From: a virus
Taxonomy: Duplodnaviria > Heunggongvirae > Uroviricota > Caudoviricetes
Length of the DNA: 64,000 nucleotides
IMG/VR virus record: IMGVR_UViG_3300001528_000136
Location: 122,906 to 186,905 of that record
Direction: 5' to 3' (one strand)
The position numbers and the translations under genes were made by a program. This document shows positions 7,274-64,000 of this stretch, one piece after another. Under the pieces are notes generated by a model. The model made no database searches. It was not told where the DNA came from and saw only the letters and a program-made list of their open reading frames with translations. Each line of letters starts with the position of its first letter. Position 1 is the stretch's first letter.

Positions 7274-8482
7274 TTATTCGTAATCACGTATTGCAATACC
7301 TATTGGTTGTTGAGGAACTTCTGAACCTTCAACACCAGACATTTCAAAGTATTTAATAGTTAATTGCTTACCTATAAGTTCATCTATATGTTTATAGTAC
7401 CAATGTTTTTGTTCCCTATCTCCCATAGGCTTACAGTTGAACCTTTGACCACTAGGAGTTTCGAGAATAAAACACATATCCTCTTCACGTAAACCGTCTG
7501 CTATACCCACAATAGGGTACTCAGCATCTATGTAAATTTTGATTTTAATCCAATCATTAGAACGAGAGCCTGGTTTATATTTAGATTTAGCTTGTCTAAC
7601 TACAAGACCTTCCCAACCTTCTTCTACATATTTATCATGCAGTTTCTTCATATTATCAAAGCCTTTGATAGGTACCTGTGGTAAGAATTGAATATGAAGC
7701 TTATCTTCCGGTAAGTGTCGTTCTGGGTCAAATTCAGTAAGTTCAAGTTCTTTAGCCCATTCTTGCATAATCTTAAATCTATCAGTAAATGAATGTTCAA
7801 GGTCAGCAATATCGTACCAATAGAACTCTAAATCTCTACCATCATCAACAGTCTTCTGGGAACGACATATTCCGCTGATAAAATTGAGTGATAAACCATG
7901 CTTATATATCTCCCCATCGAGAATTGCATCATTATGAGCTTTGAAGAACTTTAAAACTAGCGGATGAGTAATAATATGATTAATAGCTAAGTCATAGTTA
8001 GTTGCTCCTCTAGATGCTGTTCGTACATTTTTACCATCATAAAAAATTAGGCACCTAACCCCATTGACCTTACGACTACCATACCATTCTCTATCTTCAA
8101 AGATTTTACGATTAGTTACTGCTGATTCCTGTTTAGCTAACATGGGTTTAACAGTATCTCCTCGCATTTTGACTTCACCATAAATCTCATTAAGCTCATC
8201 AAGAGTATATTCATTAGGAGATTTATCTATAATTTTATAAGCCTTATCAGTATATTCTTTAACTAAATGATTAAATTGAAGTAAAGCTTGTTCTCTATGA
8301 GTTCTTCCTGCTTTTCCTACAGTAATCCATATATCAGGGGCATGTGTAATCTTACCACCAACCTGACCATAATCTCTAGTTATAAGAAGACCTTTATGTT
8401 CTTCATCCCAATCTTCGTGAAATTCTACACATACTTGCCTTAATTTACCAGTACTAGCTCTTCCTAACAAATGCTTAATCAT
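7274..8482 (-). CDS. ATP-dependent polynucleotide (DNA) ligase with a variant motif I, KVNGVR
   Basis: Motif I SRKVNGVRC (KxNGxR instead of the canonical KxDGxR). Motif III ILDGEIY. Motif IV WEGLVVRQ. Motif V WIKIK. This is the classic covalent nucleotidyltransferase motif set. Confidence 0.75.
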   Translation of the reverse strand: MIKHLLGRASTGKLRQVCVEFHEDWDEEHKGLLITRDYGQVGGKITHAPDIWITVGKAGRTHREQALLQFNHLVKEYTDKAYKIIDKSPNEYTLDELNEIYGEVKMRGDTVKPMLAKQESAVTNRKIFEDREWYGSRKVNGVRCLIFYDGKNVRTASRGATNYDLAINHIITHPLVLKFFKAHNDAILDGEIYKHGLSLNFISGICRSQKTVDDGRDLEFYWYDIADLEHSFTDRFKIMQEWAKELELTEFDPERHLPEDKLHIQFLPQVPIKGFDNMKKLHDKYVEEGWEGLVVRQAKSKYKPGSRSNDWIKIKIYIDAEYPIVGIADGLREEDMCFILETPSGQRFNCKPMGDREQKHWYYKHIDELIGKQLTIKYFEMSGVEGSEVPQQPIGIAIRDYE

Positions 8483-8538
8483 TAATTTTAATAATTAGAT
8501 GTTTAACCATATACTTATTATATCTTATAAACTAAAAT

Positions 8539-8576
8539 AACCCTAGAAATAACTGTTCAAAGCTATAACTAGGGTT
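8539..8576 (-). terminator. candidate rho-independent terminator for minus-strand transcription
   Basis: 8-bp stem AACCCTAG/CTAGGGTT with a 22-nt loop. On the minus-strand transcript it is followed by AUUUUAGUUUAUAAG. Confidence 0.35.
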
Positions 8577-8792
8577 AATATCTAAATGTTGACATTTCGG
8601 TTATGAATATAGGACCCCCTATGCTGGTATATCCCCTCAGCCCATAAAAGAGCTATAGTATATAAGCCAACTTAATTTGTAAGTAATTACAAATTAGTTA
8701 GCTAATAAAACTAATGAAGGTTTCATACCAAACCAGAACTCCTTCCCCTTCTTAGGTACTATTTTCGTTTAAGACTCTAGGTCTTTACTAAG

Positions 8793-8937
8793 GAGTCGTC
8801 GCTACTAACCCATGTGTACACAAGGCGATGCTGGACGCGTCCGGAATTTAACCAGCACCCGTTGTCGGGGTCGGGACAGAGCGGGATTTACTCGGACAGT
8901 TAGCTTTGACAAGCGATTACACGCACGGTTCTAATGT
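8793..8937 (-). ncRNA. GC-rich island, candidate structured RNA (3'UTR element) of unknown class
   Basis: About 145 nt with far higher GC than the flanks. It contains the palindrome GGACGCGTCC, the pair GCTGG...CCAGC, the repeats GTCGGG x2 and CTGTCC x2 (minus), and the hairpin CCCG-TTGT-CGGG. It lies between the gene 9056..9370 and the terminator hairpin at 8539..8576. The strand is assumed from the transcription direction. Confidence 0.3.
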
Positions 8938-9055
8938 TTATTATGTGCTAGAACTGATTCACAAAGAAGCACTAAGATTCATATACAATATATAAACTAA
9001 ATAACTTAAAATGCCAAATATAAATATGTTAATTTATCTAATTAGTTAAAATTGA

Positions 9056-9370
9056 TTACTTACGATATTTTTTAACAATATTCCACAAGTCATCTATAGT
9101 TTCAGTAGGTATTACATTATTATTCTCGTCGTAAGCTTGATTATCGGCTTCTCCTTCAAACAATGTAGGCTTCTCATAGAGCCACCAATTAATCCAATCT
9201 ATACCATCATCATCAAATAAATTAGTATAGGTAAGTTCGGACATTCTGGCAGAAATATCTCCTAATGGTAGATTAAATAAATCAATACCGAAGTCATACC
9301 ATCTATCTAATTCCTTATTAAAATCTAATACTGTCTTAATGACTTTAATAAATTGTTCTCTAGTAATCAT
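9056..9370 (-). CDS. hypothetical protein (104 aa)
   Basis: Intact ORF. No motif recognised. Confidence 0.3.
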   Translation of the reverse strand: MITREQFIKVIKTVLDFNKELDRWYDFGIDLFNLPLGDISARMSELTYTNLFDDDGIDWINWWLYEKPTLFEGEADNQAYDENNNVIPTETIDDLWNIVKKYRK

Positions 9371-9443
9371 ATTATTCCTATTTAAATAGGTTAATTAGTT
9401 AATCTAATTAATTAGGTAATCTATTAAATAAAAATTCTGGAGT

Positions 9444-18603: not shown

Positions 18604-18748
18604 TGTTAAATGTTTAAATAAAGCTATTAAGCTGTTAAATTCTGTAATCTTTTCATAGGCTTAATCTATTTATTATATTTATTTAATTAGTTAAATGCCA
18701 ACATTAATTATGTCAACATTTTACAATATATGATTCTAATTTAATTAG

Positions 18749-19522
18749 TTAGATACCTAAGATGTCCTTAACTAGATAAATCTTCTCATATTTATTTACA
18801 ATATCTCTGCCTTTATCATGTGTAATGATGTCGGTAAAAGCATTGTAAGCATCAAACATACAAATATCTTCATCATCAGGTGTATAATAGTCGGATTTAT
18901 CATCAATTACTAATTTTTTATATGCATCAATAGCTGTAGATTCTGCTAGTTTTACCGTACCAAAACCTGAATTAAATTTACTACTAATACAGTTATCAAC
19001 CCAGTGTCCTAGGTTATCATAGAGTTCATTTCTCTTAATATATGTGTTAGAGAGATTTTCCAACATAGCTCTAGTGTTATCAGTAAGTTCCATAGCCTGA
19101 TTTACAAAGGTATATTCCATTGCAGTTTCAGGTTCCAACTCACGTACTTGTAATAACTCTGGTGAAAATACACACATGTTTAAGCAAGCTTGTCTTACAG
19201 TATTCTTGAATATCTTATAAATAGGTTTACGAGTATCTAATGCATATAAAAGACTAACAGATTGAGTATGACCTTCATAAGCATATTCACCAGGCAGCTC
19301 TGCTTCTACCCATACTCTATTATAGACAATATTCTCAAAATTTACTTCGCCGTCTTTAGTTAAACTAATCTGGTCAGCAGGTTTTACTTGAATAGTAAAC
19401 TTATTAGTAAATTTAGACATTCTATCTATAAAAGGAGCTACATATTGCTCTGTTGTAAAATACTCTTTGTCTCTAATTTTAGTTGCTTTTCCTAAGAGAA
19501 GCTGTTCGGTTGTGATTTCCAT
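18749..19522 (-). CDS. hypothetical protein (257 aa)
   Basis: Intact ORF. Confidence 0.35.
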   Translation of the reverse strand: MEITTEQLLLGKATKIRDKEYFTTEQYVAPFIDRMSKFTNKFTIQVKPADQISLTKDGEVNFENIVYNRVWVEAELPGEYAYEGHTQSVSLLYALDTRKPIYKIFKNTVRQACLNMCVFSPELLQVRELEPETAMEYTFVNQAMELTDNTRAMLENLSNTYIKRNELYDNLGHWVDNCISSKFNSGFGTVKLAESTAIDAYKKLVIDDKSDYYTPDDEDICMFDAYNAFTDIITHDKGRDIVNKYEKIYLVKDILGI

Positions 19523-25415: not shown

Positions 25416-25440
25416 TTATTTATTTAGTTAATTAGTTAGA

Positions 25441-33361: not shown

Positions 33362-33368
33362 AGATTAA

Positions 33369-34148
33369 TTAGTTATCAAGACCTACAAGAGTTGAAGAAT
33401 TGCCAGTAACCTTAGGCATGGCTCCATTCCATTTCTCTATCCATTGTTTCTTAACTAATAATGGAGTAAGAGAAGCATTTACAATAGAATTAGCTTTAGC
33501 TTCTGCTTCTGCTACTACTATCTTCTTTTTGGCTTCTGCTTCAGCTACTTGTACTTCATTAGCAGCCTTCTGTGCTAACTGAATAGCTCTATTCTTAGCA
33601 TCTACTGCATCTACAATAGTTTTAGGATATTGCAATCCACTAGTAAATTGGTCAAGAATAAATCCTTCTTTAGTTAAAAGAGCAGAGAGTCTCTTTTCAA
33701 TTGCTTGTTCAACCGCTTCTCTATTACTAACTATTTGGTCAGTTGTGAACTTATTAATTTCAATACGACAAGCATCTTTAACATACTTAAAGACTGGACC
33801 GTTAATTACATCTTTCAATTCTTTACGATATTTACGAAAGACTTTAGGAGCAGCACCATCTTTAATCTTGATATTGACATTTGGGTCTACTTTAAACTCT
33901 GAACCATCTTTTGCATTAATAGTAAATGGTTCATAGTCAATAGTTTGAACATAAGTAGGGTATTCATAAACCTCTTGTGTAAATGGATTGTAAACTACAC
34001 GTCCTGTTACCATAGATACATCATCCACACCTCTATCTGAGCCATAGAGATTAACTAAAATACCTTCACAGCCAGCATCAACTCTCTCACAGCTTGTGAA
34101 ACTTAATGTCATTAATAAAGCACTTGCGAAAATAAAGAATTTTTTCAT
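33369..34148 (-). CDS. SPFH/band-7 (prohibitin/HflK-like) domain lipoprotein
   Basis: Signal peptide + lipobox MKKFFIFASALLMTLSFTSC. C-terminal repeats QLAQKAANEVQVAEAEAKKKIVVAEAEAKA are typical of SPFH-domain proteins. Confidence 0.55.
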   Translation of the reverse strand: MKKFFIFASALLMTLSFTSCERVDAGCEGILVNLYGSDRGVDDVSMVTGRVVYNPFTQEVYEYPTYVQTIDYEPFTINAKDGSEFKVDPNVNIKIKDGAAPKVFRKYRKELKDVINGPVFKYVKDACRIEINKFTTDQIVSNREAVEQAIEKRLSALLTKEGFILDQFTSGLQYPKTIVDAVDAKNRAIQLAQKAANEVQVAEAEAKKKIVVAEAEAKANSIVNASLTPLLVKKQWIEKWNGAMPKVTGNSSTLVGLDN

Positions 34149-35455: not shown

Positions 35456-35507
35456 AAATAGCTACCCATCTAGAGTAGCCAATTAATTAGTTAAAGCAAT
35501 ATGTTGA

Positions 35508-35687
35508 CTACTTAACAAGTGAATCAACATTTACTAAATCTAAATTATTTACAGAATCTTTAGATAAGGTATCAACTACGGTAGTATCGACTCTCGCACT
35601 ATCTGAAGAGTCTACAGACCTAGAACAACCATTACCACCGCATGAAGCAAGGAAGGCAATGATTGCAAAAATAAAAAGTTTCTTCAT
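35508..35687 (-). CDS. small lipoprotein (59 aa). It terminates at TAG, and read-through would add 6 aa to the TAA at 35487.
   Basis: MKKLFIFAIIAFLASCGGNGC... has a signal peptide + LASC lipobox. Below the ORF-track size cutoff. The stop is TAG at 35510-35508. Confidence 0.4.
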   Translation of the reverse strand: MKKLFIFAIIAFLASCGGNGCSRSVDSSDSARVDTTVVDTLSKDSVNNLDLVNVDSLVK

Positions 35688-35718
35688 ATTAATTATTATT
35701 TAGTTAATAAATAAAAAT

Positions 35719-35758
35719 GAGAGCAACCTAATTAATATAATTAACTAGAATTGCTCTC
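35719..35758 (-). terminator. candidate rho-independent terminator (minus-strand transcript)
   Basis: 8-bp GC-containing stem GAGAGCAA/TTGCTCTC followed on the minus strand by AUUUUUAUUU. Confidence 0.4.
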
Positions 35759-36143
35759 ACCTATTATTGGTAAATAGGAACCTCCCTGTTTCTCATCTTG
35801 AAAAGTATAGGAATTAAAAGTCACCATATTCTTAAATATAGAAGCACCTACTGTTTAAAGTTACATAGGACAAACTATCAGATAATGTTCTAGAGTAGGT
35901 TAGTAAACGTAGTCAAAGATATAGTCTAAGACCTATCTATACTGACGAAGACGAAGATTTAGACTAAGACTAATTTCCCTTGATTTGGGATAGTTTTAGA
36001 ATTTCGTATAGATAGCCGTTTAAAATAAATAATTTCCTAATATTATTATATAGATACATATATGTATCTATCCTGATATATTCATTTTAGAAATTACTAA
36101 CCTATCTAGAACTCTACTTAATTATTCTGTCTAATTAAATAGA

Positions 36144-38844: not shown

Positions 38845-38869
38845 ATATTTAATTAGTTAAATAATTTAG

Positions 38870-38953
38870 TTGTCTGAGAGAGATTCGAACTCCCGAAGCT
38901 AAATAGCGGCTGATTTACAGTCAGCTGTGGTTGACCACTTCACATATCAGACA
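38870..38953 (-). tRNA. tRNA-Tyr (anticodon GUA), class II with a long variable arm
   Basis: Hand fold: acceptor TGTCTGA/TCAGACA. Anticodon stem GCTGA/TCAGC with loop CTGTAAA. Long variable arm. T-arm GGGAG-TTCGAAT-CTCTC. Confidence 0.55.
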
Positions 38954-38962
38954 ATAATTAGT

Positions 38963-39032
38963 TGCCGAGGTTGGAATTGCACCAACGTCCTCTAGCTTAT
39001 GAGGCTAGCAAGCTACTACTGCTCCACTCGGC
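38963..39032 (-). tRNA. tRNA-Met/Ile (anticodon CAU), short D-arm
   Basis: Acceptor GCCGAGT/CCTCGGC. Anticodon stem CTAGC/GCTAG with loop CTCATAA. T-stem GTTGG/CCAAC. Confidence 0.45.
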
Positions 39033-39196
39033 GATATAATATTAAAAGGAATAGTCGGCAGGGGTTTTGCTTTTAGTATCATCCTAACGTTGCTTCTTCC
39101 ATATCAAAATAACCTTCTTTAATTCATAAGGTAACGTTACCTCCCTACTACATAATCCGTGAGTTATAATGATATTGATACATACCCCCATGTTAA

Positions 39197-39270
39197 GGGC
39201 TTCCACCCAGACTCGAACTGAGAAAAACTGATTACAAATCAGTCATTTTACCGATTAAAATTACAGAAGC
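39197..39270 (-). tRNA. tRNA-Thr (anticodon UGU)
   Basis: Acceptor GCTTCTG/TGGAAGC. D-arm ATTT-TAATCGGTA-AAAT. Anticodon stem ACTGA/TCAGT with loop TTTGTAA. T-arm CTCAG-TTCGAGT-CTGGG. Confidence 0.55.
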
Positions 39271-39275
39271 ATTAG

Positions 39276-39349
39276 TGGACCACTAGAGAATCGAACTCTA
39301 CACAGAAATCTTGCAAGGATTCCTCGCCAGCCTTGGTACATGGCAGCCC
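39276..39349 (-). tRNA. tRNA-Ala (anticodon UGC) with G3:U70
   Basis: Acceptor GGGCTGC/GTGGTCC gives a G3-U70 wobble, the Ala identity element. Anticodon stem GAATC/GATTT with loop CTTGCAA. T-arm TAGAG-TTCGATT-CTCTA. The D-arm is atypical. Confidence 0.45.
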
Positions 39350-39589
39350 AAATATATAGATTTAATAAGTATGAATCATCACTCCTTACATCAGTAAGTA
39401 CCCATTTGGTACTTACTCTCAGAAATCTAATTAATTAAATAATTGGTGGCATATACAATCTACAATACTGATTTGCATACCATTCCCAAGCTTTTTTCAA
39501 GCCTTTAAGATAAGATTTCACAATTCTTTTCATACAATTAAAAAATTAATAGTTAATTTAATTAATCTAATTATATTACAGAAGGAGTG

Positions 39590-39662
39590 AGCAGGATAAG
39601 GGATTCAAACCCTCCCATTCAGCTTGGAAGGCTGACATGCTATCACTAACACCAATCCTGCA
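39590..39662 (-). tRNA. tRNA-Gly (anticodon UCC)
   Basis: Acceptor GCAGGAT/ATCCTGC. Anticodon stem TCAGC/GCTGA with loop CTTCCAA. T-arm GAGGG-TTTGAAT-CCCTT. Confidence 0.55.
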
Positions 39663-47980: not shown

Positions 47981-48089
47981 ATTATTTATTTAGTTAACTA
48001 ACTAGAACAAAAATGGGAGCACCTAATTAAAGGCGCTCCCTTATAGAATCATAAAACTTATTACTCAAAGATGTGATTTATCTAATTAA

Positions 48090-48686
48090 TTAGATAGATG
48101 GTTGTACATCTTGAAAACCATAGCTCTGAAGAATGTCGCAATAGAGAACATCATTGTAGCTACCCTTGTCAGTACCAAGAGCTTCAAACTTCCATTCTCC
48201 ATTGTGCTTGTACAAGCGACAGAATACAATACAACGACTCATAGAAGCATCCTCAGTAAGGTCAAACTTAGCAAGAGGTTCAGCTTGCCCTTTGGCATAG
48301 AGCTTACAATAAGCATTATTTACCATACCAAAGTTCTGTTGACGATTTCTAGCATCATGGATATTAACTAGGATAACTACTTCTTCAACACTAGTTGGAA
48401 CCTTAGTAGTATCCACAATGATTGTTTCATCATCACCTTCACCTGCACCGTCACGGTTGTCACCAGAATGCTTAATAGCATTTTTCCAATTAGGTTGGTT
48501 GTAGAAAATCAACGCATCTTGCTCTACACACTTCTTAGAAGCATTAAGAGGAATTGCAGCCACATCAAGATCAAACTGTTTACCAGCTTGAGCCGCTACA
48601 TCCCAGCCTAAACCAACTGAAAACTCAGTTACACCACTTGCTTCTTTAGTAAGATTAATCTTACCACCTTTTGATAAATTTAACAT
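48090..48686 (-). CDS. TerD-domain protein (paralog 2)
   Basis: MLNLSKGGKINLTKEASG... and HSGDNRDGAGEGDDETIIV. Similar in sequence to 47354..47980. Confidence 0.65.
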   Translation of the reverse strand: MLNLSKGGKINLTKEASGVTEFSVGLGWDVAAQAGKQFDLDVAAIPLNASKKCVEQDALIFYNQPNWKNAIKHSGDNRDGAGEGDDETIIVDTTKVPTSVEEVVILVNIHDARNRQQNFGMVNNAYCKLYAKGQAEPLAKFDLTEDASMSRCIVFCRLYKHNGEWKFEALGTDKGSYNDVLYCDILQSYGFQDVQPSI

Positions 48687-58521: not shown

Positions 58522-58914
58522 ATTTTTTTAATTATTTAAGTTAATAAATAAAATAAGGAAACACACTAAAATAGTGCATTTCCTCTTAATAAAATTCTAA
58601 CTAAATAGAGTTACTGAAACCTAGTATTTCTAGTATATCAAAGACTAATACTTCTGAGTATATCCGCAGTACTTATCACATTGTACTCTGTGATTTACCT
58701 CCTCTAATATTGACCATAAGCCAACCCTCCGAGCCAGTACATTTTTTAAGCCCACCTCCTGTCAAGATATACCCAATATCTTAATATTATTAATGTCAAA
58801 AATAAAAGGAGCCTATCTTCTCAGACAAGCTCCTCAATGCAATTAAGTGTATCTCGCTAGATACAACTCTAAACGTATTCTATAATTTTTCAACATGAAT
58901 CTTTGTTTAATTAG

Positions 58915-58987
58915 AAAGTACAACAAGACTCGAACTTGTATCTAAGGACTAAAGGTCCTTTGCTCTAACCAATTGAGCTATGTACTC
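58915..58987 (-). tRNA. tRNA-Lys-like (anticodon UUU) with an unusual anticodon loop (C at position 33, or a 6-bp stem with a 5-nt loop)
   Basis: Acceptor GAGTACA/TGTACTT. D-arm GCTC-AATTGGTTA-GAGC. Anticodon region AAGGA-CCTTTAG-TCCTT. T-arm ACAAG-TTCGAGT-CTTGT. Confidence 0.4.
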
Positions 58988-59716: not shown

Positions 59717-59719
59717 ATA

Positions 59720-61015
59720 TTAAAATTTTATTCCAGTTACAACTTTCTTAGCTCCTAACAGAGCATTTGAAGAAAATGGTCCAAAACCATAATCCCATAC
59801 ATCATATGTTTTACCATTGTTTCCATTTAAGTCTGTAATAATACTAAAATTACCATGTTGAGCATAAGGGTCTCCTCCAGATACAGAGAATATAATATGC
59901 TTACCGTCTTTTGATAACTTAACATTATCACTTTTATTTAAATTGCCAATATTTTTCTTAACATAATCTCTAGCCCAAGCTTGTTCGGCAGCTCTTGCTT
60001 TAGGGTCTGTAAATGTATAAGTAGAATCACCTTCATTAGTTACATATCCAAAATCAGTAGACCAAGTGTTATACTTCTATGGTTGATTTCCATGAAGTAA
60101 ATTCTGATCCATTCTACCTCTAATCTTAAATTGTCTGGATTTCATGTCTCTTCCTCCTGGTCCCCATTTAGGTTCTTCCTATTTAATAATATTCCACAAG
60201 CTATCTGCTGTAGTATAATTATTCTTATCATTTAAATCTAAATCAGCAAACTCCTATGAAGCTTTGCCAGCCTTAGAAGACCCTGTAATTCCTTTAACAA
60301 ATTTAGTACCAAATCCGTATATTCCTCCTATACCTACATCATTTCCATCAATCTTCACGTGTGCATTTAATCCTTTACTATCTAAAAATTTATTAACTGC
60401 CTATGTATCCTTAGAGTTATCATAACCAAAAGGAAACATATTATTTAAAGTTGATGAAACCATACCTCCTAATCCTTTAGATACTTCTCTAGGGTCAACT
60501 TTTAAATTTTTATTCTTTCCTAAATTATATAATACATTGTTGTCTATAGCATCTTGCTATGCCCTCTTCTTCTTAACTTGATAATCTTGCCAAGCTTTTT
60601 CACTTTGCTAGCCCCAATCTCCATCAACAGCTATTTTATAACCATTTTTCACTAATTCTTGTTGTTTAGCTGTAGCACCTGTTATATCATAACCTGCACC
60701 ATGTTTAGCTAACAATTTAGAGTTATAGTGCGATTGTTTCTATCTATATTGCTTAGCATCTTTATCAGCCTTAGAACTCATCTATTTAATATTACTCATT
60801 TTCTAATTAGCCCATTCCTGATTTCTTTGATTCTAACCAGTAATAGCTAATCCTAATGTACTAGATGCAAACTAATTGGATTTCTAAGGAGTTCTCTATT
60901 TAACCCTTTGTTTAGAATGTCTTATGTCATCTAAAACAATCTAAGTTCCCATACCTGCAACATCCTAAGTGTAGGCATTCTAAGCCTACAGTCTTTTTAC
61001 TAATTCACTTGCCAT
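59720..61015 (-). CDS. TAG-recoded gene (432 codons, 17 in-frame TAG). It encodes a protein with a PG_binding_1-like peptidoglycan-binding motif and is a putative late/lysis protein.
   Basis: ATG at 61015-61013. TAA at 59722-59720. Checked codon by codon on the minus strand: 17 TAG (at + 60077, 60179, 60254, 60401, 60557, 60608, 60740, 60782, 60803, 60833, 60872, 60884, 60896, 60941, 60965, 60980, 60986) and zero TAA/TGA in frame. The translated segment ...KLLAKHGAGYDITGATAKQQELVKNGYKIAVDGDWGxQSEKAWQDYQ... matches the PG-binding signature vDGxfGxxTxxAvxxFQ. Confidence 0.7.
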
Positions 61016-61155
61016 AAATAATTTATCAGTTAATAAATAAGTTATCTAATTAATTATAATCTATTAACTAATATATAAATAAAAAAAACAAATGCAACTA
61101 TTTTCTCAAACCATTACATTCTAGACTCACAATAGGATATTACAAGAATTGTAGA

Positions 61156-61220
61156 GGTCTAAGAGAGACTCGAACTCTCAGATATTCCTAACTAAATAAG
61201 ATTAGTTAATTATTTAGACC
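61156..61220 (-). ncRNA. degenerate tRNA-like element (65 nt) with acceptor and T-arm but no D-arm
   Basis: Acceptor GGTCTAA/TTAGACC. T-arm GAGAG-TTCGAGT-CTCTC. Central hairpin TAACTAA-TCTTAT-TTAGTTA with a 6-nt loop. Confidence 0.25.
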
Positions 61221-62333
61221 AACCACCTCATAGAGGATTAAAAATACTATGAATAAGAGCGTCTTCTCACACATGGCTGAAAAGTATCTTACAAATTAGA
61301 GTGTAACTAAATAGTATTAACTAAATAGATTACGTAAGATAAATTTGTGAGGCACCAACGAGTATATTTAATTAGAGTAACTTCCACCGCTCATAGTTGC
61401 TCCCGTATTAGACGAAACTCCAGATAAATAGTTATTAGCTAGCATCTATTCAATGAAATTAAAGGGTTTGAACCTCTGTTTCTCTTATTCTATACATTAT
61501 TAAATAAATACCTACTTGTATCTCAATTTATTTCATAACTAATTTAAGCACATGCTTATTTCATTATTACTTTAAATATATGATAATGTCTCTTATTAAT
61601 TCTCTTCCCTAATTAATAGAAAGGAGTGTGCACAATATATTCAGAGACTAAATTCCGCAATCTCCCATTTACAGCTGATAGAGAGATTTATAAGAACCAA
61701 ATACTTCCTTTATAAGGAAAGTGAGTAAATATTTAATAATGTATAACTAGTATTTTATGATTCTAGTATTATAAAATTCTAACAGTATTTATATATTCTA
61801 ACAGTATCTATATATTCTATTACCACTAAATAGTGGAGCTAGAGGGTACTGCCCCCTCGTCTTACATATTCGCATCAAAACATTCTTACAGCTTAGGTTT
61901 TAAAGACTATCCTTGTCTAGTAACAAATAAACCTTTAAAAATATGAATTTGCACTTTTCTGTTCCTAAGTAAGTGCTACTCGGTTTCTCAGGCTACTATA
62001 GCAACTGGAGAAACAGAAGAATTATTTACTCTTTCGCCTTTTATTGTTTTGTCGTATTTCCGACTGTCTTTGCTGTGTTTTTTATCTCCTATGCAATCAA
62101 ATGCTAGTTTAGCCCCGTATTTCTTTTATTAAATAAAACTACCTATTTTCACAAACCAGTAGTTTTTTAACATATTGTGTATTACGATGATAAAAATTAT
62201 TAATATTAAAAAGAGCATCAATCTTCACAGACTAATACTTTATAAATGTTTCAAAATAATATTCAATTTAATCACTTATCTTCACAGACTAGCAATTATA
62301 TAAACAATTTATACCAATATGGTACAGAATGAG

Positions 62334-62418
62334 TGCTCCTGACGTGATTTGAACACGCAATTCCCAAGGGACAGTGGTGTTTAAGACCACTCTGTATACC
62401 AAATTCCAGCACAGGAGC
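62334..62418 (-). tRNA. tRNA-Leu (anticodon UAA), class II
   Basis: Acceptor GCTCCTG/CAGGAGC. Anticodon stem GTGGT/ACCAC with loop CTTAAAC. Long variable arm. T-loop TTCAAAT. Confidence 0.6.
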
Positions 62419-62500
62419 TTATTTTTATAAATAAACTACTCTATCTTCACAGACTAAGTAGTTTAACCATTATGTACAAAAAACGAGTTAAATATAAGTG

Positions 62501-62575
62501 TGATTCCTATGAGATTTGAACTCATGCCCCTCAGATTAAAAATCTAATGCTCTAAACCAACTGAGCTAAGGAATC
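62501..62575 (-). tRNA. tRNA-Lys (anticodon UUU)
   Basis: Acceptor GATTCCT/AGGAATC. D-arm GCTC-AGTTGGTTTA-GAGC. Anticodon stem TTAGA/TCTGA with loop TTTTTAA. T-arm ATGAG-TTCAAAT-CTCAT. Confidence 0.6.
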
Positions 62576-63757: not shown

Positions 63758-63927
63758 AATCTATTTAATTTAAAAGTTAATAATCTAGTTAATATTCTGA
63801 TTTGTAATTAATATACTATTTAACTAATTAAGTAAAATAAAACTATCTATTCTCACGAACCAATAGTCTTATATCTGCGTTTACTTGATTTTTCATAACT
63901 CTAAATATTACAAAACAGAATTGTTTG

Positions 63928-64000
63928 TGGACCAGCTAGGGCTTGAACCTAGGACCTCCAGATTATGAGTCTGTTGCTCTAACCAACTGAGCTACAAGTC
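63928..64000 (-). tRNA. tRNA-Met/Ile (anticodon CAU), truncated at the 5' end by the window edge
   Basis: T-arm CTAGG-TTCAAGC-CCTAG. Anticodon loop CTCATAA. D-arm GCTC-AGTTGGTTA-GAGC. The 5' strand of the acceptor lies beyond position 64000. Confidence 0.45.

Follow-up and report, generated by a model that had tools for sequence, protein, structure and literature searches.

The G+C-rich island that lies between two genes of this phage genome very probably forms part of a family of structured RNAs read from the minus strand, as covariation was found on both a hand-made and a model-derived alignment and the G-U pairs agreed with that strand. Compensatory changes were present in seven core helices, a junction-to-loop pseudoknot included, and the structured RNA proposed by the sequence-only reading that had singled out the island was thereby borne out in homologues from other phages. 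The RNA is an orphan carried by uncultured AT-rich gut-type phages, and is unusual in a predicted helix that would bridge a stop and a start codon and in a distribution resembling that of mobile elements.

Composition, insertion site and distribution

The window, that is the whole stretch of 64,000 nucleotides analysed, has a G+C content of 30.5%, whilst positions 8793-8937 reach 53.8%, against a mean of 30.4% (sd 5.0%) for 145-nt windows. The highest 145-nt peak of all 64 kb (8792-8936, 54.5%) falls on the island and the second highest (48.3%) is a tRNA cluster; the island therefore exceeds every other peak in the window, and the contrast with its neighbourhood that had been claimed holds. 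Also present as described were the gene end at 9056, the hairpin at 8539-8576 and the motifs GGACGCGTCC, GCTGG...CCAGC, CCCGTTGTCGGG, GTCGGG (twice) and GGACAG (twice). The island-equivalent stretch has 51-56% G+C in five variants of the element and 44% in that of locus L005, and the high G+C of the island is due to its helices. Nine tRNA genes (Tyr, Thr, Ala, Gly and Leu, with two each for Met and Lys) are clustered in the window, all on the minus strand.

The view that the island is non-coding was upheld, in that stops break every frame of every variant and single-base indels separate the variants. The frames stayed broken even with readthrough of TAG or TGA, and coding by stop-codon recoding was rejected since no frame opens with either codon read as sense. 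Elsewhere in the window, a region of approximately 2.6 kb (59717-62332) has no standard ORF longer than 53 aa, and reading TAG as sense opens a 447-codon frame on the minus strand (59720-61063) that contains 19 in-frame TAG codons and has a protein-like translation. From its sequence this frame looks like an amber-recoded gene; it had no Pfam match, and none of the nine tRNAs of the window is a suppressor.

When folded alone, the island was not more stable than its shuffles (z +1.3 and +0.9), whilst the whole intergenic region exceeded shuffled sequences in stability on the minus strand (z -4.1). A G+C island in an AT-rich phage genome can hence flag a real RNA despite negative single-sequence folding statistics. 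Because the conserved RNA spans approximately 8974 to at least 8737, or approximately 8530 with its 3' extension, the island, which comprises P2 through P7 and the start of P8, is not self-contained. Whilst the proposal of a structured RNA is supported, this RNA is two to three times longer than the island and lies on the minus strand. In another part of the window, a 688-nt gap between called ORFs (35456-36143, minus strand) had z -6.6 relative to shuffles and several strong hairpins; it also holds a short ORF starting MKKLFIFAIIAFLASCGG, which resembles a lipoprotein signal peptide.

The island belongs to an insertion between a 104-aa ORF and an ATP-dependent DNA ligase gene (Table 1), with genes for a dUTPase, a metallophosphatase and others further upstream. 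In four relatives with a ligase 94% identical to that of the window (L001, L003, L004 and L008) the two genes overlap as TAATG with zero spacer, and positions 8483-9055 are therefore regarded as an insertion. Its ends read UCAAUU...AAAUUA, and the flanking TAAT fits a 4-bp duplication in the window, the L005 site being a sequence replacement and not a duplication.

Six distinct variants of the element, including that of the window, were collected, two of them nearly identical. The five others reside in uncultured phage contigs, three upstream of a ligase gene and two upstream of nrdD. For instance, L006/L007 (ligase 95% identical) harbour a copy upstream of the ligase gene, the 5' part of which was lost at the contig end, whilst the copy of L005 (ligase 91% identical), which is more divergent, is located between a 255-aa gene and nrdD, and that of L069 also lies upstream of nrdD. 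The two nearly identical variants (L009-L013) precede a ligase only 41% identical to that of the window; these were retrieved with a 21-mer from the most conserved block, and L069 by means of other blocks. One of the contigs, L013 (CALEJY010000136.1, 17 kb), was deposited in a 'Candidatus Melainabacteria' MAG and has, RNA element and all, what is essentially the phage sequence of L010/L012; either a phage contig was mis-binned here, or the deposit hints at the host.

The core of approximately 240 nt is 76-90% identical among the variants, those of the window, L069 and L009 sharing 88-89% mutually and 76-81% with L005. The former value is found although the ligases of those phages share 41% of residues, and core divergence does not track the kinship of the flanking genes, as the most divergent copy occurs, at the other site, in the phage with the 91% identical ligase. 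Sequence comparisons show far stronger conservation in the core than in the phage genes around it. The element is sporadic, occupies two junctions and is under strong purifying selection, and its gain and loss among near-identical genomes, combined with conservation above that of neighbouring genes, point to a strong, specific function or to selfish mobility.

No further copy was present at 42 other ligase loci, all of which were empty sites, and the junction between the 255-aa gene and a ribonucleotide reductase gene was empty in three groups of relatives (one with nrdD, two with a different ribonucleotide reductase). Searches of the window and 82 related loci (614 kb) with nhmmer and a covariance model (R1) returned the known copies only, and no homologue was retrieved from 50,697 GenBank phages, even at E <= 1, by BLAST searches in which the insertion, its core or the core of L005 served as query. 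An exact 27-mer and 20-mer of the island were absent from the viral and metagenome contigs searched, and an 18-mer match in L002 was rejected as a chance match in a GC-rich phage. The window's own proteins had no exact match on record. Literature searched by sequence and by topic contained no described match, and the family is absent from Rfam 15, from GenBank phages and from this literature.

Homing-endonuclease genes were observed near the same loci in several relatives (L003 3992-5224, L014 2122-3354, L004 3333-4307, L008 1808-4232 and L024 5902-6999). In relatives, GIY-YIG/DUF723 genes directly follow the ligase gene, split nrdD genes contain HNH genes, and LAGLIDADG genes were seen as well; mobile insertions have a hot spot in the ligase/nrdD region.

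Covariation and structure of the core

The hand alignment was fitted to the structure, and its rows were checked to reproduce the real sequences. Standard pairs made up 312 of its 316 cells, and 22 pairs changed on both sides, relative to 5.4 on average and at most 12 in column shuffles (n=2000) and 1-5 in slid registers. As this alignment had been fitted to the structure, the count was repeated on a model-derived alignment (A6), in which L005 is partly out of register. There, 94.7% of cells were paired (85.7 ± 1.2 in shuffles, 0/500 as high) and 13 pairs were compensatory (3.9 ± 1.5 in shuffles, 0/500), with 37-46% of cells paired in slid controls. G-U cells numbered 20 when read on the minus strand and one on the plus strand, which points to an RNA on the minus strand. 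These counts are drawn from six distinct sequences only, two of which are nearly identical, and much of the covariation of P6 and PK2 is contributed by L005 alone.

Table 1. Positions of the RNA element, its helices, its surroundings and the tRNA genes in the window
Feature	Position	Strand	Remarks
Accessory insertion, 573 bp	8483..9055	-	between 104-aa ORF and ligase gene; TAAT on each side
104-aa ORF	9056-9370	-	no Pfam match
ATP-dependent DNA ligase gene	7274-8482	-	PF01068
P0 5' arm (predicted)	9015..9054	-	starts 2-3 nt past stop codon of 104-aa gene
P0 3' arm (predicted)	8483..8526	-	ends 1 nt ahead of ligase ATG
TATATT box, possible -10 element	8975..8992	-	12 nt upstream of conserved 5' end UAGUGC
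Conserved core, ~240 nt	8974-8737	-	3' extension P9-P11 reaches ~8530
5' domain, predicted H-type pseudoknot	8928..8974	-	P1 GUGCU/AGCAC interleaved with P1b GUUCU/AGAAC
P2 hairpin GCG-6 nt-CGC	8913..8924	-	stem invariant, loop varies
P4 domain, bulk of island	8804..8904	-	P4 = 8899-8904 with 8804-8809; encloses P5, P6 and P7
P5	8882-8885 / 8858-8861	-	CCCG/CGGG, CCUCG/CGAGG or CUACG/CGUAG in different variants
P6	8852-8857 / 8829-8834	-	GCTGG/CCAGC of the sequence-only reading
P7	8820-8825 / 8810-8815	-	TGTGTACACA; C-G to A-U in L009
PK2 pseudoknot	8838..8898	-	junction 8893-8898 (UGUCCG) with 8838-8843 (CGGACG), loop of P6 = GGACGCGTCC
P8 domain	8737..8797	-	P8 = 8790-8797 with 8737-8744; encloses P8a and 31-nt purine-rich stretch
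P8a hairpin	8781-8785 / 8771-8775	-	pairs covarying: 5/5 (hand alignment), 4/5 (tool alignment)
Purine-rich 31-mer ACGAAAAUAGUACCUAAGAAGGGGAAGGAGU	8738-8768	-	identical in 5/6 variants
P9	8624..8731	-	base UUGGUAU/AUACCAG encloses variable insert
P10 hairpin AUAGG-GGGU-CCUAU	8609..8622	-	inner pair G-C in window and L009, A-U in L069, G-U in L006
P11 terminator-like hairpin and U-rich run	8527..8576	-	hairpin 8539-8576, run 8527-8538
tRNA genes	38869-39661, 58914-58987, 62333-62575, 63927-64000	-	

The 5' domain (approximately 50 nt) hardly varies among the five variants in which it is included, and as its paired positions never vary, the pairing is a prediction. P2 and, outside L005, P6 are likewise invariant, so that these pairings and the 5' pseudoknot draw no support from covariation. 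P4 changes from CUAAC/GUUAG to UUAAC/GUUAA in L005 (C-G to U-A), and a CCGACCC-GGGUUAG pairing proposed by RNAalifold was dropped in view of this covariation. The CCCG-TTGT-CGGG hairpin listed in the sequence-only reading was found to be specific to the window; read as CCCG-ACAA-CGGG, this local hairpin was dropped because covariation, seen in L069 and L005, prefers the distal partner that forms P5. Amongst the self-complementary elements of that reading, GCTGG/CCAGC proved to be a conserved helix (P6), whilst the remainder are not conserved helices, and the palindrome TGTGTACACA, which it did not cite, is a further conserved helix, P7.

The sequence GGACGCGTCC had been taken as a palindrome, whereas it is the loop of P6 and pairs with a distant junction to form PK2. 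This pseudoknot is kept by three sequence pairs, namely UGUCCG/CGGACG in the window, UGCCCU/GGGGCG in L069, L009 and L010, and AACACG/CGUGUU in L005, and on the tool alignment three of its six pairs change on both sides. A long-range pairing of UUGUC with GACAA is also possible, though it never varies and has a mismatch in L005.

P8 reads GACUCCUU/AAGGAGUU in the window and GACCUCUU/AAGAGGUU in L069, which amounts to two double changes, and it is these compensatory changes that alter two of the last bases of the L069 31-mer. The blocks common to all variants are CGCUUGUC, CGCUCUGUC, ACAACG, GGUUA, CGACGACUCCUUAGU and the 31-nt stretch ACGAAAAUAGUACCUAAGAAGGGGAAGGAGU. The strands of P8 (8737-8797) were also observed to resemble a Shine-Dalgarno/anti-Shine-Dalgarno duplex, ACUCCUUA with UAAGGAGU, each a single base short of the canonical pair ACCUCCUUA / UAAGGAGGU, since in L069, where the strands read ACCUCUUA / UAAGAGGU, a different base is missing; this likeness may be a coincidence.

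Downstream of the core, the base of P9 is kept in the window, L006, L069 and L009, with an interior that differs in length and sequence and is hairpin-like throughout. In the window, this interior contains two hairpins, one long and composed of AU (8663-8705), the other GCUC/GGGC (8639-8654). The L005 variant is without P9, P10 and P11.

The predicted flanking helix, candidate transcription signals and possible roles

In three of the four complete variants (window, L069 and L005), approximately 45 nt following the stop codon are complementary to approximately 45 nt preceding the ATG, and this flanking helix, P0, is predicted to have 34-35 pairs with internal loops. At its outermost pairs the helix comes to within 0-3 nt of the stop codon and 0-1 nt of the ATG, and in L069 the UAA itself pairs with UU and the A of AUG. 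Duplex energies (RNAduplex) were -17.8 (window), -18.3 (L069) and -21.3 (L005) kcal/mol, each matched by 2 of 500 shuffles. The gapped inverted-repeat score of the window, 19, was attained in 4/2000 shuffles and 0/2000 random AT-rich pairs; the P0 energy of the window ranks first of 32 native intergenic gaps, with the next values close, such that it is not an outlier. Owing to 4-5 G-U pairs, the sense duplex is stronger than the antisense in L069 (-18.3 vs -5.8) and L005 (-21.3 vs -11.7), the two being similar in the window, and this asymmetry points to selection on RNA. The variants of L009/L010 have no P0-like helix, and the case for P0 consists of its recurrence in three of four variants, its stop/start geometry and the G-U asymmetry.

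The P0 arms of the three variants share only short AATTAGA / TCTAA sequences and otherwise differ in sequence and length. Since these two sequences each make up one half of a palindromic motif (ATCTAATTAATTAGAT; TAACTAATTAA) with more occurrences in the genome than expected, the arms might also have a role at the DNA level. The motif TAACTAATTAA, which has TAA in all three frames, had 52 matches vs 18 expected, and the palindromic form ATCTAATTAATTAGAT had 18 vs 4.3 expected. Most matches are on the coding strand and precede a start codon by 5-25 nt (for example at 9391-9417, 18683-18754, 25428-25438, 33365-33375, 38849-38862, 39425-39440, 48080-48095 and 61044-61059), and could represent a promoter, an operator or a three-frame stop element.

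On balance, we consider it probable, with moderate confidence, that the element constitutes an RNA module embedded in the operon and looped out or processed by way of P0. It would be transcribed as part of the operon mRNA, because both arms of P0 must sit on one RNA, and the long closing helix, by pairing bases after the stop codon with bases before the start codon, would loop the RNA out as a separate module. A duplex of approximately 35 pairs is the kind of substrate cut by RNase III, as in the stalks around rRNAs and their intervening sequences, and P0 may serve as a double-stranded processing stalk of this type, from which a stable RNA is released. Correia elements provide a further precedent (PMC2649163). 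Alternatively or additionally, P0 may keep the flanking cistrons, which normally overlap in this operon, functionally adjacent, and, as a guess, the released core could act in trans as an accessory RNA of the phage. The terminator-like hairpin lies inside P0, and efficient termination there would preclude the helix. Confidence in any specific biochemical role of the core is low; by analogy, ribozymes, aptamers and RNP scaffolds show conservation of this kind. If P0 is real, it would provide a testable way for a phage operon to tolerate an insertion of 350-570 nt between coupled genes.

It is possible, although we favour it much less, that the RNA is instead an independent non-coding RNA gene, a moron-like cassette with its own promoter and intrinsic terminator that acts in trans, P0 being incidental. 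The variation in presence and absence among near-identical phages would suit such a gene, as would a TATAWT box that precedes the conserved 5' end UAGUGC by a constant 11-12 nt in four variants (window, L069, L009 and L005). This box hints weakly at a promoter element; however, in L069 and L005 it falls inside a P0 arm, the G-U asymmetry of which implies co-transcribed flanks, and TATA-like strings are common in these very AT-rich surroundings, in which a promoter scan detected no excess. Beyond P10, four variants (window, L069, L009 and L006) have a P11-like hairpin with a U-rich tail in the same position, the sequences being unrelated. Of the four U tracts, that of L009 is good, those of the window and L069 are interrupted and that of L006 is poor, and P11 was not called by a simple consensus terminator scan. 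Moreover, the U-run of L009 is separated from the ligase ATG by 10 nt, leaving no room for a promoter, so the ligase gene must be read through.

That the element is a cis-acting leader, a riboswitch- or attenuator-like sensor controlling the ligase or the anaerobic ribonucleotide reductase, appears somewhat unlikely. All six variants directly precede the ligase gene or nrdD in the same orientation, a terminator-like hairpin is located right before the start codon, P0 would sequester bases adjoining the ATG, and the core is conserved to the level of an aptamer; in L005, the 5' strand of P8 could also pair with a downstream AAGGAGU beside a start codon. A riboswitch would nevertheless be expected to associate with one pathway, whereas the two downstream genes here are unrelated and most relatives lack the element, among them phages whose ligases are 94-95% identical and many nrdD relatives. 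The absence of P9-P11 from L005 also argues against a leader, and no conserved alternative pairing between core and terminator was found, matches being of 4-5 bp only, for which reason terminator/antiterminator switching was dropped. A leader peptide following the Shine-Dalgarno-like AAGGAG was likewise dropped, as the short ORFs are not conserved.

We regard as unlikely a mobile cassette at the DNA level (MITE-like or spread by recombination), with the inverted repeats as its ends and the RNA as cargo. The terminal inverted repeat of the window is significant, TAAT is present on both sides, the shared AATTAGA / TCTAA sequences of the arms are halves of a genome-wide palindromic intergenic motif, the distribution over two sites is sporadic, and precedents exist in Correia elements (PMC2649163) and the PeSL cassettes of T4-type phages (PMC2839356, PMC4122927). 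MITE or IS elements would, however, be multi-copy, and this insertion is single-copy in the window and in each genome, with no additional copy in 614 kb of related loci. Beyond the short motif the arms vary from one variant to the next, their G-U asymmetry favours selection at the RNA level, no transposase is encoded nearby, and such a cassette would explain mobility but not the conserved pseudoknotted core. Both the RNA-gene and the mobile-cassette explanations are compatible with an operon-embedded module.

More doubtful still is a new intron-like class of 'translationally transparent' mobile RNA elements, which would insert between coupled cistrons such that flanking expression survives, the doubly pseudoknotted and strongly conserved core being a ribozyme or the RNA half of a processing or moving machinery. 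The closing helix would then set the upstream stop against the downstream start and allow re-initiation, shunting across the stem or precise excision.

That an intron, self-splicing or excised in another way, lies between the two cistrons, be it as a remnant or as a new kind, is very unlikely. These phages are rich in homing endonuclease genes and split nrdD genes, the insertion lies exactly at a gene junction, P0 would join both flanks, and the core is complex and conserved; yet no group I (RF00028) or group II (RF00029 or domain V) match was obtained at E <= 10 in three variants, nor one to another Rfam family. No TAAT-flanked register gives the U before the 5' junction and the final G of group I introns whilst restoring TAATG, none gives ends of the group II form GUGYG...AY, and an intergenic element needs no splicing. 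The intron remnant suggested in the sequence-only reading has accordingly found no match, and its further suggestion of an attP site, a tRNA fragment or captured host DNA can practically be dismissed, as foreign-looking G+C is its sole support and is accounted for by the helices, no tRNA or tmRNA was found in 8483-9055 (ARAGORN, RF00005; the nine tRNAs all lie elsewhere), no integrase is encoded nearby, and, among 185,579 species genomes, the conserved 21-mer was confined to a single phage-like contig that had been placed in a MAG.

Comparison with known systems

A scan of the whole window against Rfam 15 (4227 models) gave scores above the gathering threshold for tRNAs only, the island itself matching no family, and at E <= 10 the copies of the window, L069 and L005 produced chance-level matches far below threshold. 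Large conserved pseudoknotted RNAs whose function is unknown are rare, and several were later recognised as ribozymes, riboswitches or RNA components of new machines. ROOL, GOLLD and HEARO are large phage-associated RNAs. Like these and the RNAs of G+C-rich intergenic regions, the element has many conserved helices, pseudoknots and conserved unpaired stretches and is phage-borne; unlike them, it has no Rfam match, is rare, and is situated between two cistrons with a predicted flanking helix that joins stop and start. The 23S rRNA intervening sequences, which are excised by RNase III, offer a further comparison, taken up below.

Long G+C-rich intergenic regions are an established marker of structured RNAs in AT-rich genomes (PMC6429828, PMC8632094, PMC11109978), and the island, being G+C-rich, non-coding and intergenic in an AT-rich genome, resembles the orphan ncRNAs of these studies. 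It shares with riboswitch and attenuator leaders a conserved structured domain and, after it, a terminator-like hairpin shortly before a gene; unlike such leaders, it is dispensable in near-identical phages, precedes two unrelated genes, had no conserved switching helix that could be found, and has one variant without the terminator part.

As with the Correia elements of Neisseria (PMC2649163) and the 23S rRNA intervening sequences, the insertion is sporadic, lies in a presumably transcribed region, has inverted repeats that would form a long RNA duplex, and shows filled and empty sites among close relatives. Those elements are short or without a conserved core, multi-copy in the case of Correia, and have conserved ends, whereas the present element is single-copy, with a conserved pseudoknotted core of 240 nt, fast-evolving arms and putative cleavage. 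PeSL promoter/stem-loop cassettes mediate modular shuffling in T4-type phages (PMC2839356, PMC4122927), and here too a short motif that recurs in intergenic regions flanks an accessory insertion, the content of which varies among close phage relatives. Whilst PeSLs are promoter-terminator units that bracket protein genes, the cargo in this instance is a structured RNA, and the bracketing motif (TAACTAATTAA / ATCTAATTAATTAGAT) is a candidate promoter at most.
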